Assembly (NCBI GenBank): GCA_001772985.1
Contig: MEVN01000034.1
Span: forward strand, 1-34,741
Reading direction: 5' to 3'
From: a candidate division WWE3 bacterium RIFCSPLOWO2_12_FULL_36_10
GTDB lineage: Bacteria; Patescibacteriota; WWE3; UBA101185; UBA10185
DNA: 34,741 nt
Shown here: positions 4,940-29,366 of the stretch, one piece after another
Layout of the letters: each line of letters opens with the position of its first letter
Position numbering within the stretch: the first letter of the stretch is position 1
Program-made: the position numbers and the translations under genes
The notes under the pieces: generated by a model
What the model was told of the DNA's origin: nothing
The model's database searches: none
The model's input: the letters and a program-made list of their open reading frames with translations, nothing else

Positions 4940-5977
4940 TTATAAATTGAAAATTGTGAATTCATTCCCCTTTATTACTATTTCTTCAATTTCTTTTTTT
5001 GTTTTTAGTCCTGCGGTTGAGCCAATATATCTTGTGACTCCACAAGAATTTATAGCTCCCCAGTTTAACGCCTCTTTTAAGCTTTTTTTATCATCAACCA
5101 CAAGTTCGCATATGTGGTTTGATGAAATTCCCGTTTCGCGGGAATTATAAAATAGTGCAGATAAAAATGCGGAGGCAAAAGCATCGCCGGCACCTGTTTT
5201 GTCGATTAGTTTTTTTCCATCGTCATAAATTTTTGCATAAACAACTTCGTTACCAGAACTTGCGCTTGAACCGTTTTCACCATCGGTAATTACTGTTAAT
5301 TTTGGGCCGAGTCTTTGTAATTCTTTATGTAATTTCTCAAGATCGTTTTCATTTTTTGAAAGAATTTTTTGTGCTTCCTCTAAGTTAACAAAAAGTACGT
5401 CGGTTAATTCCAATATATTTTTTATTTTCTCAATGCCCGCTTTTAAATGATAAGTTCCGGGATTAAATGCGAGTAGAACATTCTCATTCTTTTTTAAATA
5501 CTCAACCAAGTTGGCTTGAAAGCTTTCAAAGTTTTCGGGAAGCGATGAGTAATAAATCCAAAGTGGTGTTGACCAATCTATAACCTTATATTCAAAGTGT
5601 TCATGATATGAAAAAATTGTTCTCTCTCCTTTAAAGACTATTATTGAATGAACATTAGTCGGCTTGCCTGAATTTTTGATGCAATAGGTTGTATCAATTC
5701 CAAGTTTTTTAAATTCAGTTATAAACCTTTCTCCGTTTGAATCGTTGCCAAGTTGGGTATAGATTGTACTTTCAAGACCTAGGAGTTTACAAGCAGTGAC
5801 AACGTTTGGGGCATTTCCGGCTAATGTGGCGTTATAAGATTCTACCGGAATTTTGTCTGCGTAATCAAAACAAATTTTGCAATTTTTGTGGTCAATATCA
5901 CAAACTACTGAAGCGTCGTCTACTTTCATGAATTCATCAATAGAGGAGTCGCCAATTGCCAAAAGGTCAAATTTCAT
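4940..5977 (-). CDS. PfkB-family carbohydrate kinase
   Basis: C-terminal anion-hole motif DKTGAGDAFASAF and an N-terminal LLAIGDSSID. Substrate cannot be assigned from sequence. Confidence 0.8.
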   Translation of the reverse strand: MKFDLLAIGDSSIDEFMKVDDASVVCDIDHKNCKICFDYADKIPVESYNATLAGNAPNVVTACKLLGLESTIYTQLGNDSNGERFITEFKKLGIDTTYCIKNSGKPTNVHSIIVFKGERTIFSYHEHFEYKVIDWSTPLWIYYSSLPENFESFQANLVEYLKKNENVLLAFNPGTYHLKAGIEKIKNILELTDVLFVNLEEAQKILSKNENDLEKLHKELQRLGPKLTVITDGENGSSASSGNEVVYAKIYDDGKKLIDKTGAGDAFASAFLSALFYNSRETGISSNHICELVVDDKKSLKEALNWGAINSCGVTRYIGSTAGLKTKKEIEEIVIKGNEFTIFNL

Positions 5978-24127: not shown

Positions 24128-26470
24128 TTATTCTGTAGAAAACCCTACCGCTTTAATGGTTACAGTGTTTTTGAATTTATTTTTTGTGTCTATTTTTATT
24201 AATATATCCTTTATTTCTTCCTGATTACCGTTTATGTCTTGAGCTTTATATTGTATAGAAACTATTCCTTCTAAATTAATTGTAAAGGGGGTTATATATT
24301 CGTTCCAATCTTCTTCGCCATTTATTGAGTAGAAAACTTTATCCAAGTCCGTTGTGGCTGAAGAAAAAGTAATTAGCGGATACGTTTTATACCAGCCATC
24401 AATTTGATTATCACTAATCGTAATTTGAGTCTCCGGAGCTTGGGCATCAATTTTTTCACCCATTACAGCAAAGTCTGAGAAATGACTTGTTATAGCTGAA
24501 ATTTTATTTTTTGATAAATCAAGAGTTGATTCAAGTGATTTCCAAGTATTAGCAATTTCATCCAAATAATATATTTTTAAAGTTTCAAATTTGACATTCT
24601 TTAGTTCTGAAAGAGTTAGGTCTATTTCTAAGGTTGATAGGAAATCTACGTTTAGTTTTTCCCCAAGATTAGAATACAGATTAACTATAAAAGAAGTGTT
24701 TGGAATGTAAGTTAGAACATTTTGAATTTTTGCAAGTTGTGGCTTTGAGTTTGATTCTATAAAAATAGTGGAATTTCCGATGGTAGAATTGTTAGGAAAT
24801 ATAATTTTCTTATTTTCAAGCACAACTTCTTTAGTGCTTTGGCTTAAATACGATGCCAAATCTTTTTTTGAGATTTTCCAGAGATATTCGCTTGATGTTC
24901 CGGTGTGATTTCCCAAAGCATCGGACCATTTAAAAGATTCCCACGGGTCTTCCGGTTGGTTTACGTTTTGGCTATCCCAACCAAAGGGATCTGTTTTTAT
25001 GCTTGGGTTCTCGATTTTAGCAATTGAAAAATGAAGATGAGGGCCTGTTGTATTTCCGGTCATGCCAACAAGTCCAATTTGGCTACCTGTATCTATCCAG
25101 ACCGGACCAGTAGTTGTTATAATGCCGGCTTTTTGCAGATGAGCATAAATAGTTTGATATCCGTTTTGATGGTTGATTTGTATATAATTTCCAAGTCCGG
25201 TTTTATTGTAACCGTACGTAGCAAACCCGGGAGCCGGGGCAACAATTTTTGTGCCGTATGGAAGTGAAAAATCATAACCATCGTGACTGCTGTAATACAT
25301 TTTCGGTTCCTTTTCCCTAATTCCTAAGTAGTTAAGTGTTGTTCCTTTTGCGCTAATTGGTTCGGAGAAATATGGATATCCAAGGAGAGGGTATTCGTGA
25401 TCAAAAAAAGTGTAAATCTTTTCTATTAATTCATTTTCGTTTTTGACTTTCCAAGGTGTATTAAGAAAGGGTAAAACGTTTGACTCTTGTTTTGGAATTG
25501 TATATTTATAAATTCCGTCAGACGGAGTTGCTGTAAAAATAAGCGAGGGTGCGGAAAAAAGCCATGAGATATCTACTACATTTCCGTCCGTGAATGGCAG
25601 ATTAAGAAAGGCGTCTTCCCAAGTTAATCCAAAGTCTACTGATTTAAAAATTGTAAACTTAAGACTGATTGGATTTTGTTTACCCGCATAAAATACTCCG
25701 TTGTAATATTTGATAGCTCCTGTTGGAAAATTTCCCCAGTTTGCAACTTTTGACCAATTTTTTCCGTAATCAGTTGATCGGTATAAACCGGTTGAATTGG
25801 AGTTTCCGGCCAAAATAACATTTTTATATATTTCGATATACTTTATTTTTAAATCTTTAAGTTGTGGTAATTCGTTCCAAGTACTTCCATAATCATTTGA
25901 GATAAAGGTTTGAAGGCCGGTTGATGCGATAACTGTATTATCGTAACCTGAAATCTCACTTATTTGCGGACCGAAAAATCCGTCACCGATTTTTTGTTCC
26001 CACGTTACTCCATCGTCTTTTGAAATCCAAAGTCCTTGACTGTATGTACCAAGTATTACCGAATTTGTTGTAGCCAAAACGCTTGATGCCGAAAAATTAT
26101 TTCCATAATGCTGCCAAGTAATTCCTTTATCAACTGATTTAAAAAATCCATTCTCGTTTCCCACATTGTAGTAAGTTGAAACGTATAAATTTTGATTAAG
26201 GTACGAAATATCTGTTACGCCTCGACCATTTAAGCCAAGTTTTGTCCACGAGTTTCCAAGATCGGAACTTACATAAACTCCATTATGAGGATTTAACCAT
26301 AAACGTGTATCATATTCTCCGGCCATTATTCCCCAGGGAGTAGTTTCTATTGTTGAAACGTTAGCACTGTTTAAATTTGTTTTTGTCCACTGGTTATCTG
26401 CGTATGTTATTTTAGAACAAAACAAGAAGCTAAAGATTAAAAATATTAAAACTAAAATTTTATATTTCAT
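24128..26470 (-). CDS. Secreted BNR/Asp-box beta-propeller fused to an M23 metallopeptidase and C-terminal Ig-like region
   Basis: Signal/TM N-terminus. Six SxDxGxxW boxes (SSDLGNSW, SVDKGITW, SKDDGVTW, SNDYGSTW, STDYGKNW, SVDFGLTW). M23 motifs HDGYDF and GNTTGPHLHF. Confidence 0.8.
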   Translation of the reverse strand: MKYKILVLIFLIFSFLFCSKITYADNQWTKTNLNSANVSTIETTPWGIMAGEYDTRLWLNPHNGVYVSSDLGNSWTKLGLNGRGVTDISYLNQNLYVSTYYNVGNENGFFKSVDKGITWQHYGNNFSASSVLATTNSVILGTYSQGLWISKDDGVTWEQKIGDGFFGPQISEISGYDNTVIASTGLQTFISNDYGSTWNELPQLKDLKIKYIEIYKNVILAGNSNSTGLYRSTDYGKNWSKVANWGNFPTGAIKYYNGVFYAGKQNPISLKFTIFKSVDFGLTWEDAFLNLPFTDGNVVDISWLFSAPSLIFTATPSDGIYKYTIPKQESNVLPFLNTPWKVKNENELIEKIYTFFDHEYPLLGYPYFSEPISAKGTTLNYLGIREKEPKMYYSSHDGYDFSLPYGTKIVAPAPGFATYGYNKTGLGNYIQINHQNGYQTIYAHLQKAGIITTTGPVWIDTGSQIGLVGMTGNTTGPHLHFSIAKIENPSIKTDPFGWDSQNVNQPEDPWESFKWSDALGNHTGTSSEYLWKISKKDLASYLSQSTKEVVLENKKIIFPNNSTIGNSTIFIESNSKPQLAKIQNVLTYIPNTSFIVNLYSNLGEKLNVDFLSTLEIDLTLSELKNVKFETLKIYYLDEIANTWKSLESTLDLSKNKISAITSHFSDFAVMGEKIDAQAPETQITISDNQIDGWYKTYPLITFSSATTDLDKVFYSINGEEDWNEYITPFTINLEGIVSIQYKAQDINGNQEEIKDILIKIDTKNKFKNTVTIKAVGFSTE

Positions 26471-26518
26471 TATTCACCCTAATATACATTGCAATATTAT
26501 TTGCGCAATAACCAGAAA

Positions 26519-26546
26519 TCTACTCTGAGTAGACATAGTGTATAAT
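26519..26546 (+). promoter_or_regulatory. Candidate promoter: 15-nt palindrome over the -35 region plus TGTATAAT
   Basis: TCTACTC-T-GAGTAGA at 26519-26533; TATAAT at 26541-26546 is preceded by TG. The SD AAGGAG at 26566-26571 precedes ATG 26579. Confidence 0.4.
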
Positions 26547-26578
26547 GACGCCACCTGGATCAAAGAAGGAGAAACGAG

Positions 26579-26932
26579 ATGAGTCTCACAGTAGTGCATG
26601 TTAGTGGTGATGAAGATCGGTGGCGCGGTCAAATTAATTATTTGCTACGTTCATCGAGAATTTTTTCTAATATCTTTTGTTTTGATATCGAGGGAATGGA
26701 AAGATTTTTGGCTGAAGTTGGACTTAGGCCAACCATTGTCCTTGTTAATTACTTTGTAGAAAAACTAGGTGATGGAGCAGGATTTGCAAGGAAACTTAAG
26801 GAAAGTGGCATACCGGTAATTATTATTGGAGCGGATTTTGTTGTTGGATTTAATCCCAGAGATGAATGTCTTACAAGGGTTAATCTTCCAAGTGATTTAG
26901 TTCCTTTAATTAGGAGAAGGTTAAGTTTGTGA
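26579..26932 (+). CDS. Stand-alone receiver (CheY-like)-fold protein, pseudo-receiver (acceptor Asp replaced by Asn)
   Basis: Beta-alpha periodicity typical of REC. VVHVSGDED is at the beta1 end, IVLVNYF sits where LxxxD is expected, and VIIIGADF is at beta4. Confidence 0.5.
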   Translation: MSLTVVHVSGDEDRWRGQINYLLRSSRIFSNIFCFDIEGMERFLAEVGLRPTIVLVNYFVEKLGDGAGFARKLKESGIPVIIIGADFVVGFNPRDECLTRVNLPSDLVPLIRRRLSL

Positions 26933-26966
26933 GTTGCTTGCGAACCTACCAGTGAGGAGGGATGAA

Positions 26967-27302
26967 ATGGAAAAGAGTGTTCTTCTGGTCTCAGGCGATG
27001 AGGGCTTTAGAACCAGAGTTGCGGAGCTTGTTCGTGGCAGAGGATTTATTTGTGTAACAGCAAACAGTATTTCAGATGCTTCTGAGGCTCTCAAAAGAGC
27101 TATTTACGACCTAGTTTTGATTGATTCAAATGTTGGGCCGGAACTTTTGGTAAGGGAATTCGTCAAAATATTACTTGAACACAAACAAAAGGTTTTGGTT
27201 TTCGTTTTAATTATTCCTGATTGGGTAGGGTTAGAAGTTCCTCTTATTCTGCGGACGCTAGTTAACGAGCAGTTACCGGATTGGATGGAGAAAAATGGAT
27301 AA
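26967..27302 (+). CDS. Stand-alone receiver (CheY-like) domain protein retaining the acidic pocket and acceptor Asp
   Basis: MEKSVLLVSGDEG (acidic pair) and DLVLIDSNV (acceptor Asp position). The start is placed at ATG 26967, which has the SD GAGGAGGG 5 nt upstream, rather than at TTG 26934. Confidence 0.55.
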   Translation: MEKSVLLVSGDEGFRTRVAELVRGRGFICVTANSISDASEALKRAIYDLVLIDSNVGPELLVREFVKILLEHKQKVLVFVLIIPDWVGLEVPLILRTLVNEQLPDWMEKNG

Positions 27303-27651
27303 ACCACTCATGGTTGTGCTCGTTAAGGGCGGAATTAGGACACGGATAGTTGGGTTTTTGGCGACAAAAAGAGTACCATTCGCGCCTTTTGGTGATTTCG
27401 ATTCAGCAGAAGTGGCTTATAAACGGGAAGATTATAGCGGGGTGATATTTTATTGCGGAGCTTCTGATTGGCCAAAAATTGTGCCTTTTGCAAACAGACT
27501 TGTAAGGGAAAAAGTACCTGTAGTGGTAATTTCATGGAGCATACTAAGTTTTTCCGGATTGGATGCACCTTTTATTTCTACATCCGGATGGGATGGGGAT
27601 TATATGAAAAGCGTAAGGCAATGGTTAAAAACTAACCACTTTGTCAGTTAG
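27295..27651 (+). CDS. Stand-alone receiver-fold-like protein, pseudo-receiver (acidic pocket and acceptor Asp lost)
   Basis: Same length and beta-alpha pattern as the two preceding ORFs (MVVLVKGG, GVIFYCGAS, VVVISWS). Has 8-nt overlap with the previous gene. Confidence 0.5.
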   Translation: MDKPLMVVLVKGGIRTRIVGFLATKRVPFAPFGDFDSAEVAYKREDYSGVIFYCGASDWPKIVPFANRLVREKVPVVVISWSILSFSGLDAPFISTSGWDGDYMKSVRQWLKTNHFVS

Positions 27652-27657
27652 CCTTTT

Positions 27658-27695
27658 GGCGCGGAATATTCAAAAGATAAACCGCGCCGTTTTTT
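27658..27695 (+). terminator. Rho-independent terminator of the receiver-like operon
   Basis: GGCGCGG (27658-27664) pairs with CCGCGCC (27682-27688), followed by GTTTTTT. Confidence 0.75.
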
Positions 27696-27848
27696 AAGGA
27701 TAATCCTAGATAGACCCTAATTTCTGCCACTATATCAATGTCATGAATTTAGGAATACAAACGACCGTTGTTTCTCCTCATACCTGAAGGTTTTTAAAAA
27801 ATAATCCAATCGTATTTAAACCGATTTTGTTAAGATGCCAACCTTTCC

Positions 27849-27872
27849 AAGGATTATCCTAGGATAATCCTT
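27849..27872. promoter_or_regulatory. Perfect 24-bp palindrome AAGGATTATCCT/AGGATAATCCTT: probable operator
   Basis: Exact inverted repeat. The GGATAATCC/GGATTATCC core recurs at 27698-27707 and 28008-28017. Confidence 0.55.
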
Positions 27873-27971
27873 ATTACATATTATAAATACAACGGATTTT
27901 TAGGAAACAAGAAACAATGACTAACATAATTTCTTGCTATAACATCAAGTTGGTGTAAACCGGATAATTCT

Positions 27972-29366
27972 ATGCCGTCTTATCAAACGTTTTCACGGTT
28001 GGTCTTGGATTATCCTCATCACACCCATTTTATTGATATAATTCCCGTGATGGGAAATATCATAAATGAACTAAAATTAAAGAACCCCGATCTTAAAGAA
28101 GCTGAAATTGAAGGCATTCTTTATATACTTTTAAATAGTAAATCTCTGACTAATAATGAACTGGTAAGATTAACAGGACTTCCAAAAGAAACTCTTAAAC
28201 AGTTTAAATTTTCAATTGCCAATTTTCTTAAGGAAGCGAAAGATGAAGCCGTTAGCTTAAATGAAGATGGTATTAAAATAATCTCTGACTTAAAACTTAA
28301 GCCAAGTACTTTGCCGTTGTTAAAATTTCATAATCCTGATTTAGTAAAAAAACTTAAAGAAATTAGAAAAAAACACAATCTAATCCCAAAAAGAGAACTG
28401 GATCAATTTTTTGCAACGGAAGAAACTTCAATATCAAAAGCTGAGATAGTAAATGCAAAAGGTTTAATTAAAAACAAAAGTATCGCGGTTTTAGGAGATG
28501 ACGATTTAGCTTCAATTTCAATTGCATTATTAAACCCAAGTTACGAAAATATCGTTGTTTTTGATGTAGATGATGAAATATTAAAAGTAGTTCGTGATAT
28601 TGCAAAAGAATACGATTTAAAAAATGTTCAAACTCAAGTTTACAGCGTGTTTGATATTTTAAAAATTGAATTTAAACATAAATTTGACGTTGTTTTAATT
28701 GACCCGCCGTACACAAAGCGAGGCGTTAGCCTATTTTTAGCAAGGTCAATCCAACTTTTAAAAAAGCCTTTGAATTTTGCAGGACCTTTTATTTTCTTTA
28801 ATTATGGAAATAGCTTTAAGAATCCTCAAAAAACCTTAGAAATACAGGAATTAATTTCAAGCTATAAAATGGTAATAGAAGATAAAATTGACAAATTTAA
28901 TTCTTATTATGGTGCTGAATCTATTGGAAGCTCAAGCTCTGTTTATGTACTAAAGTTAACTCCCGCTACAAAAGTTTCGGATCATAAAGGACTTGGAAAG
29001 ATTTATACTTATGAAAAACAAGAGGAAGATGAATTTCCGTTCACGAGCCATTACGTTTTTAAATTGTTTGATGTGCCGGGAAAAATAATTCAAGACGAGA
29101 AAAAGTTAGAAAATATTACTCTTGATTTTTGTACAAAACACAATTTAAAAGTTAAGGAGGTTTTTGTGACAAAATTTAAACCTCATGGTTGTACTATTAC
29201 TGTAGTCTTATCAAACTCTAATTTATTAATTCACACTTGGTACAAAGAAAGGGCAGTTCATATAGATTTAGTTGTTTGTACTGAAATTTATAAAGAAAGC
29301 GAGATGATATTAACTCTTGCGCAGCTTTTTGCAACTGAAAAGATTGAATATAAAAAGATTGAGTAG
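27972..29366 (+). CDS. Fusion protein: BpsA-like (DUF43) aminopropyltransferase plus a C-terminal class-1 S-adenosylmethionine decarboxylase-like (SpeH-type) domain
   Basis: The middle region has VLGDDDLASISIAL and FDVVLIDPPYT (DUF43/BpsA hallmarks). The C-terminal 110 aa align to pyruvoyl AdoMetDC, with GCTITVVLSNSNLLIHTWYKERAVHIDLVVC matching [31 protein letters not shown]. The start codon is uncertain because there is no SD. Confidence 0.65.
   Translation: MPSYQTFSRLVLDYPHHTHFIDIIPVMGNIINELKLKNPDLKEAEIEGILYILLNSKSLTNNELVRLTGLPKETLKQFKFSIANFLKEAKDEAVSLNEDGIKIISDLKLKPSTLPLLKFHNPDLVKKLKEIRKKHNLIPKRELDQFFATEETSISKAEIVNAKGLIKNKSIAVLGDDDLASISIALLNPSYENIVVFDVDDEILKVVRDIAKEYDLKNVQTQVYSVFDILKIEFKHKFDVVLIDPPYTKRGVSLFLARSIQLLKKPLNFAGPFIFFNYGNSFKNPQKTLEIQELISSYKMVIEDKIDKFNSYYGAESIGSSSSVYVLKLTPATKVSDHKGLGKIYTYEKQEEDEFPFTSHYVFKLFDVPGKIIQDEKKLENITLDFCTKHNLKVKEVFVTKFKPHGCTITVVLSNSNLLIHTWYKERAVHIDLVVCTEIYKESEMILTLAQLFATEKIEYKKIE

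Follow-up and report, generated by a model that had tools for sequence, protein, structure and literature searches.

The stretch of DNA that we analysed, a 34,741-nt contig of candidate division WWE3 bacterium RIFCSPLOWO2_12_FULL_36_10 (Patescibacteria) that we call the window, carries at positions 26519-27695 an operon of three tandem genes, A, B and C, coding for stand-alone receiver-like proteins. We have little doubt that these belong to a family of pseudo-receivers with a receiver fold, and that the family occupies an array whose content varies between strains. The explanation we consider best as a whole, at a probability of about 0.5, is a pseudo-receiver operon whose core consists of one protein that keeps the acceptor aspartate (Asp), of type B or of the related type E, and of the Asp-less protein C. 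An earlier reading of this DNA, made from its letters alone (hereafter the sequence-only reading), had proposed three open reading frames (ORFs), and all three are found where it had placed them (Table 1), each with a Shine-Dalgarno (SD)-like motif 6-8 nt 5' of its ATG; the stop of B and the start of C overlap by 8 nt at 27295-27302, ATGGATAA. It had also noted that none of the proteins has an output domain, which is upheld for A, B and C alike. Judging from its residues, B is the sole possible phospho-acceptor among the three.

The receiver identity of these proteins escapes a standard Pfam scan, but is recovered by family profiles, by hhalign and by predicted structure. Against PF00072, whose gathering score is 30.2 bits, A and C give no match and B reaches 19 bits (E-value 0.0017) over residues 5-56 only, below the cut-off; orthologues of type E score 18.7-24.9 bits, and in NCBIfam B gets weak response-regulator matches only. 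A profile built on B and E returned 53 matches from the PDB, nearly all of them receivers, that place D53 on the acceptor Asp, and the same profile finds C in the genome at an E-value of 2e-5. The receiver matches of B and of the B/E profile cover mainly residues 1-55, and a profile of the whole family aligns at full length with the MtrA receiver (E-value 3e-5). Within the family, hhalign relates C to B/E at 96.7% (E-value 3.5e-10), collinear over the 102 columns of residues 1-102, and A to B/E more weakly, at 79% (E-value 1.6e-5); no relation was detectable between A and C, or between A and a second family pair on contig C9 of the same genome. When the profiles of C and A were searched alone against PDB sequences, that of C gave no significant receiver match and that of A nothing significant either, with MtrA at an E-value of 0.06.

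Structure prediction, which had been suggested as a check, supports the same fold. Models of A and C, built with AlphaFold2 on a 17-sequence alignment of the family, reach a predicted local distance difference test (pLDDT) score of 88-90 (A 89.9, C 87.9) and predicted template modelling (pTM) scores of 0.85 and 0.83, respectively. The top 50 Foldseek matches of each model in the PDB are all receiver-type domains, with template modelling (TM) scores of 0.55-0.77 (0.57-0.77 for A, which has a KaiA chain at rank 48). TIR, flavodoxin and B12-binding folds, considered as other candidates, do not occur in the top 50 of either model, and neither A, B nor C matches a family of these three kinds in Pfam, NCBIfam or PADLOC. 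The predicted topology of A and C is beta1-alpha1-beta2-alpha2-beta3-alpha3-beta4-beta5-alpha5, alpha4 being missing from the model of C and reduced to a 4-residue turn in that of A. Aligned with the five canonical receivers of the genome, the whole family lacks about 11-13 residues between beta4 and beta5, and the place of alpha4 is taken by a family motif, WxGLxxP, which reads SFSGLDAP in C. The best-kept part is alpha1, the kinase-docking helix, which has a hydrophobic-Arg motif common to the genome's canonical single-domain receivers. Of the (beta-alpha)5 periodicity claimed from the sequence, then, the receiver-like fold stands and the fourth helix, deleted in the whole family, does not; similarly, the Pfam check brought nothing above the cut-off, but profiles and models are receiver-like. 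On these comparisons and predictions, A, B and C are receiver-fold proteins and distant paralogs, and the fast-evolving family probably originated by tandem duplication of a single-domain response regulator.

The active-site residues, assigned through the alignment with the same five canonical receivers, tell how far each protein has departed from the usual chemistry. The canonical quintet (two acidic residues that follow beta1, Asp after beta3, Thr/Ser after beta4 and Lys after beta5) is incomplete in all three. B has D11, followed by E12, after beta1 and keeps the acceptor D53, and its Thr and Lys positions are occupied by Val80 and Arg96; A has E12 and D13 after beta1, Asn57 as acceptor, Gly84 and Arg100; C has no acidic residues after beta1 (VKGG), Tyr53 as acceptor, Ser80 and Thr96. 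All the residue motifs quoted in the sequence-only reading are present in the sequence, and its claims of an Asn at the acceptor position of A and of the loss of both acidic pair and Asp from C are borne out. Its claim that the middle protein has an intact pocket is not: D11 and D53 are kept, but not the Thr and Lys, and the residue before D11 is variable (G, K, S, N or R). A pseudo-receiver is defined as a receiver domain in which any one of the five residues is absent (PMC12632262), and as A, B and C each lack at least two, all of them are pseudo-receivers (PsR) in that sense. A, in the allele of this strain, and C lack the acceptor Asp and are also aspartate-less receivers (ALR), whereas B, which keeps it, is a PsR and not an ALR. 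The acceptor position is Asp in the A orthologue of the related strain L031, and His in the relatives of C. D11 and D53 do not vary among the B/E proteins, which are no more than 42-49% identical to one another, and every one of these has Arg or Lys at the Lys position; D11 and D53 have drifted in A, C and a further type, D, which suggests that the pocket of B/E still matters.

Comparison of related groundwater strains, in which the array holds 2-4 genes, reveals five paralog types in the slot: A, B, C, D (113 amino acids) and E (110-113 amino acids, with DDE, D and K kept). The order is A-B-C in the window strain, A-B-C-E in L031, D-B-C-E in L029 and L030, B-C in L035 and A-C-B' in L033, D standing in place of A in L027-L030. 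C is present in all arrays, and each also has at least one Asp-bearing gene of B/E type. The changes are precise. In L035, A is exactly absent, promoter, ribosome-binding site (RBS) and ATG being fused to the second codon of B with 15 bp of microhomology, and E, where present, is inserted exactly between the last codon of C and the stop before the hairpin that closes the array. The overlap between the stop of B and the start of C is found in the window, L029, L031 and L035. As these alignments depict it, the slot is a fixed promoter and a fixed terminator between which whole genes are gained, lost and reordered, with breakpoints at start and stop codons. The trio of the sequence-only reading therefore exists here as A-B-C, but is one state of a 2-4-gene array with C and one B/E-type gene as its core, A being dispensable. 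Part of the locus has also moved between strains. Against L027 and L029, the background rate of synonymous substitution (dS) is about 1.0, but that of C, the hairpin and the 5' end of the downstream BpsA gene is about 0.12, with 94-99% nucleotide identity; positions 27260-28450 are 94-99% identical (dS 0.125) and the flanking genes only about 82%. By this pattern of identity, C, the hairpin and the 5' part of BpsA are a recent recombination tract between strains. In the same comparison, B diverges at the protein level above the background.

A, B and C are real genes under purifying selection. In a large protein collection, each ORF has only 2-4 close homologues (68-81% identity), all from groundwater metagenomes, and groundwater metagenome contigs carry orthologues in the same slot (68-96% identity), with a BNR/M23 peptidase gene on one side and a BpsA-AdoMetDC gene on the other. 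Pairwise ratios of nonsynonymous to synonymous substitution (dN/dS) are 0.12-0.35 for C, whose sequences are 75-96% identical among strains, the 0.12 being the value for the most distant strain, at a dS above 1; they are 0.18-0.47 for B and 0.38-0.64 for A, whose orthologues share 80% and 69% identity. Flanking genes give 0.05-0.15 for the same strain pair. At the protein level, C evolves about as fast as housekeeping genes, B about twice as fast as C and A about three times. The sequence-only reading had allowed for ORFs without counterparts in related genomes; they are conserved as intact ORFs in sister strains, with dN/dS below 1 for all three, but not in related genera. It had also found the ORFs richer in GC than their surroundings, and indeed they have 37% (A), 40.5% (B) and 41.5% (C) against 35.4% for the genome. 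The excess lies mainly in codon positions 1 and 2, and since GC at the third position (GC3) is within about one standard deviation of the genome mean, it reflects amino-acid composition and gives no clear foreign signature. A foreign origin by GC content was ruled out on the same ground.

Searches of increasing breadth gave a narrow distribution. Single-sequence searches with each ORF found no orthologues in 60 relatives; the B/E profile found only partial matches to canonical receivers over 133 genomes of the class; and a pattern scan for C found none in 185,579 species genomes. The profile of C, run against 1.84 billion representative proteins, returned only C itself and a spurious repeat protein, and a metagenome scan with B/E only a contig that was already known. 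PADLOC and PHROGs gave only weak receiver-like matches, and phage genomes no match to the family. By these searches, the pseudo-receiver family was found only in one genus-level lineage of Patescibacteria. The same genome holds a second tandem family pair, on contig C9 (11599-12317; locus L042 1115-1836, minus strand), that hhalign relates to B/E at 95.5% and that was not found in 40 relatives. One of its members, of 112 amino acids, keeps DDDDD, Asp and Lys; the other, of 114, has Ala in place of the acceptor. Directly upstream of this family pair is an AbiEi/AbiEii toxin-antitoxin pair, and downstream of it a Phd/RelE-like pair.

The genome, of 730 kb and 82% complete, offers possible signalling partners elsewhere. 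The inventory suggested by the sequence-only reading yielded five HisKA+HATPase kinases (contigs C38, C39, C40, C45 and C8) and one fragment at the end of C35, together with five canonical receivers, one OmpR-type and four single-domain. As that reading had it for the window, neither HATPase_c nor HisKA is matched on its contig, and a search of the whole genome gave no Hpt. Two of the kinases, those of C45 and C8, are orphans without an adjacent receiver, and the tandem canonical receivers on C44 have no adjacent kinase. A HATPase_c match on C5 was ruled out as a kinase, being a 1067-amino-acid GyrB with a large intein-like insert. The match lies in a frame around 3157-3450 of C5 (minus strand), and the insert has Cys as its first residue and HN at the end.

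How the array might work is a more tentative matter, and we put forward a mechanism based on a core pair and a phospho-switch with more doubt than conviction. The functional core would combine one B/E-type protein, which has the Asp, with the Asp-less C, and in most arrays translational coupling would lead to their joint synthesis. As its retained residues suggest (D11, D53 and the Arg or Lys), B/E would probably still be able to bind Mg2+ and to take up a phosphoryl group, the donor being an orphan histidine kinase (C45 or C8) or a small molecule. C, its phospho-chemistry lost, would be the obligate partner or adaptor of B and would relay its state by protein-protein contact, and the new contact surface would be the remodelled beta4-beta5 face that carries the motif in place of alpha4. 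A, and D in other strains, would act as dispensable modulators or decoys, and expression would be set at a putative palindromic operator. A putative phospho-sink or scaffold arrangement, as had been suggested from the sequence, is also possible. If B/E and C do pair as a heteromer, the array would provide a minimal model of how a dead receiver senses a live one's state or passes it on.

Several points weigh against this explanation. B is without the Thr and Lys of the quintet, has no constant residue at the first acidic position, and its D11 can be placed against the canonical pair only to within one residue. The alignments behind the AlphaFold2 models were drawn from the family itself, so that the models of A and C cannot be counted as evidence separate from B/E. 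Each paralog type is represented by 3-7 sequences of one lineage, and a gene that is always present is one seen in about six strains, several of them on short contigs. In L033 the B-type gene lies 11 nt after C, and C 130 nt after A, so that translational coupling is not universal. The true partners of the orphan kinases could instead be the two orphan canonical receivers on C44. Lastly, we infer the contact between B and C, the phosphorylation of B and the target of the array, and each is to be held as tentatively as the mechanism they make up.

Such doubts leave room for a module that works without phosphorylation, in which all members, including B, act by binding, for instance as kinase-docking decoys or competitors or as adaptors, and in which activity is set by the amount made, through the palindromic operator, and by the paralog set of the strain. 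All three proteins are pseudo-receivers by the five-residue definition, there is no kinase or Hpt in the operon or the window and no Hpt in the genome, and alpha1 is the best-kept part, with profile matches mainly in residues 1-55. Also, expression-level control and competition for kinase binding have been proposed for pseudo-receivers (PMC12632262). However, the B/E proteins keep D11 and D53 without exception at 42-49% identity, and both positions drifted freely in A, C and D, a pattern that points to chemistry or metal binding in the acidic pocket, and we regard a purely binding-based module as rather unlikely, if worth serious attention. A different use of the pocket, for ligand binding or catalysis, would make the array a sensor of a metabolite or second messenger in which the pocket loops of C bind a small molecule and no phosphotransfer occurs. 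These loops are remodelled (K11-G-G, C54-G-A-S-D-W59, S80-W-S82 and S95-T-S-G-W99), and C is most conserved over residues 75-104 and in the loop that follows beta3, which are the pocket-forming loops of receivers. Some pseudo-receivers are known to have quinones, c-di-GMP or pathway end products as ligands (PMC12632262), and in relatives 3 nt separate the end of the array from the promoter of a polyamine-synthesis gene. That synteny, however, is found only among close strains, residue conservation discriminates little between C sequences that are 75-96% identical, and A, B and C match no ligand-binding family; we give this idea little credit.

The variability of the locus could also be its purpose, if it were a hypervariable cassette of conflict or accessory cargo (in phage/host interaction, for example) in which diversity is selected and the receiver fold is a mere scaffold. 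Gene content does vary between close strains, B and A evolve 2-3 times faster than the flanks at the protein level, the recombination tract covers C and the terminator, and the C9 pair sits between the AbiEi/AbiEii module and the Phd/RelE-like pair. But dN/dS remains far under 1, the array keeps its chromosomal place and its neighbours, PADLOC and PHROGs return only weak receiver-like matches and phage genomes none, and cargo of this kind seems to us quite improbable. Far less credible still is that the genes are functionless remains of a response-regulator duplication, in the course of being lost. Catalytic residues have been lost, A is absent from some strains, and its dN/dS of 0.64 compares with 0.20 for the neighbouring M23 gene in the same strain pair; however, no strain has a broken frame, genes are lost cleanly and as a whole, the remaining ones keeping an RBS, and the dN/dS of C, 0.12 at dS above 1, is like that of housekeeping genes. 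By these dN/dS values, decay is largely excluded for B and C. Improbable too is the idea that receiver-only cassette arrays are a signalling or conflict device in their own right in the ultra-small Patescibacteria, independent of any dedicated kinase, with C, Asp-less, without alpha4 and with a rebuilt pocket, as conserved effector or ligand sensor and with swappable paralogs, Asp-bearing ones and decoys, that tune it. If true, this would be a new use of the receiver fold, distinct from a degenerate two-component system.

Known systems offer partial parallels for the pseudo-receiver operon. About 6% of the receiver domains of bacteria are pseudo-receivers, whose mode of switching is an open question (PMC12632262). 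PsR and ALR domains, as defined there with reference to Maule et al., 2015, typically show Lys-to-Arg and Asp-to-Asn substitutions, both seen here, and are expected to act through binding, dimerisation or ligands and not through phosphotransfer (PMC12632262). Unlike them, A, B and C fall below the Pfam cut-off, stand alone without output domain or alpha4, and form a strain-variable tandem array in one genus. With the single-domain response regulators CheY, Spo0F, DivK and CpdR they share the receiver-only format of about 110-130 amino acids and the use of protein-protein contacts, B/E also keeping the acceptor Asp, and the genome's other receivers are mostly single-domain too. However, those regulators have a complete DD-D-T-K quintet, the full (beta-alpha)5 fold and known kinases, whereas even B has other residues in place of Thr and Lys, and the proteins of the array have neither alpha4 nor a linked kinase. 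A co-encoded partnership of a degenerate receiver with a more canonical one is represented by PleD, in its REC-REC' pair. Others are the pseudo-receiver/receiver heterodimer WhiI/BldM and the pseudo-receiver CmrT within the cmrRST two-component system (PMC12632262). The partners in these cases have outputs (DNA-binding or GGDEF) or belong to a single chain, whereas ours are separate output-less proteins whose contact we infer. The pseudo-receivers of KaiA and CikA, from the cyanobacterial clock, likewise use an Asp-less receiver fold as a module that binds proteins or ligands, but they form part of larger proteins whose partners are known (KaiC, KaiB, quinones), and no sequence relationship to A, B or C was found beyond the common fold. 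What is distinctive here is an operon made only of output-less pseudo-receivers, with loss of alpha4, divergence below the Pfam threshold and a constant "dead" core with varying members, in one genus. It provides a natural strain series of arrays with 2-4 members in which the most degenerate member, C, is the most constrained. Because A, B and C are too diverged for Pfam, two-component censuses of Candidate Phyla Radiation (CPR) genomes undercount such proteins; the reach of these results is limited, since the family is confined to one uncultivated genus.

Table 1. Features of the pseudo-receiver array and its borders (window positions)
Feature	Position	Strand	Length	Description
Palindrome TCTACTC-T-GAGTAGA (7+1+7, perfect)	26519..26533	.	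15 bp	candidate operator over the -35 position of the array promoter
TATAAT -10 box	26541..26546	+		TG directly upstream at 26539-40
Gene A	26579..26932	+	117 aa	accessory stand-alone pseudo-receiver
Gene B	26967..27302	+	111 aa	Asp-bearing receiver-like protein
Gene C	27295..27651	+	118 aa	Asp-less pseudo-receiver, conserved core of the array
Hairpin GGCGCGG-N17-CCGCGCC then T6	27657..27695	+		terminator-like; fixed 3' border of the array

The borders of the array agree with the palindrome-bearing promoter and strong terminator that had been seen around the ORFs. The palindrome lies just upstream of the TATAAT box, in the divergent intergenic region common to the array and the BNR/M23 peptidase gene, and is present in all related loci irrespective of the first gene of the array. 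One arm position in L027 has a compensated C:G to T:A change, and the changes in L031 and L033 are uncompensated. Downstream of the -10 box, the SD AAGGAG stands about 8 nt before the ATG of A, and GTGTATAATG and the RBS of the array promoter are conserved across strains; a consensus scan passed over this promoter because its -35 is poor. In L027, the conserved palindrome and the array -10 box are separated by an insertion of about 110 bp (about 5490-5600) with a further box, AGGATAAACCTAGGTTTATCCT, that is similar to the boxes in a 337-bp insertion of the window. At the other end, the hairpin folds with -18.1 kcal/mol (z = -3.1) and was passed over by a simple terminator scan because its 17-nt loop is too long. 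Loop included, it is 97-100% identical in all strains, against 75-85% for the flanks, whether the preceding gene is C, E or B'. The loop, AATATTCAAAAGATAAA (within 27657-27689), is as conserved across strains as the stem, which a plain intrinsic terminator does not require, and in relatives the 3' arm stands at the expected -35 position of the BpsA promoter. From its sequence, the inverted repeat of the hairpin may also serve as an operator or RNA signal. An Rfam search of 26300-28200 gave no match.

Directly after the hairpin, the window has a 337-bp stretch (27693-28029) with the AGGATAATCC/24-bp palindrome boxes and a proposed upstream open reading frame. All five related strains are without it, and in them the equivalent of 28030 comes no more than 3 nt after the hairpin. 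The 24-bp palindrome recurs in the same genome, in full at C37:624-647 (100%) and in part at C20:22584-22754 and on C14 and C15. As it is missing in relatives and its palindrome has copies elsewhere, the stretch looks like a small dispersed or inserted element. It contains the first 26 codons of the ORF at 27972-29366. Past the insertion, positions 28033-28052 hold TTGATATAAT, common to relatives, with an ATG 7 nt later. The ATG at 28050 is Met27 of that ORF, and the BpsA-AdoMetDC proteins of relatives start there (MGNIINELK...), so that the true start is probably 28050 here too, on a near-leaderless transcript.

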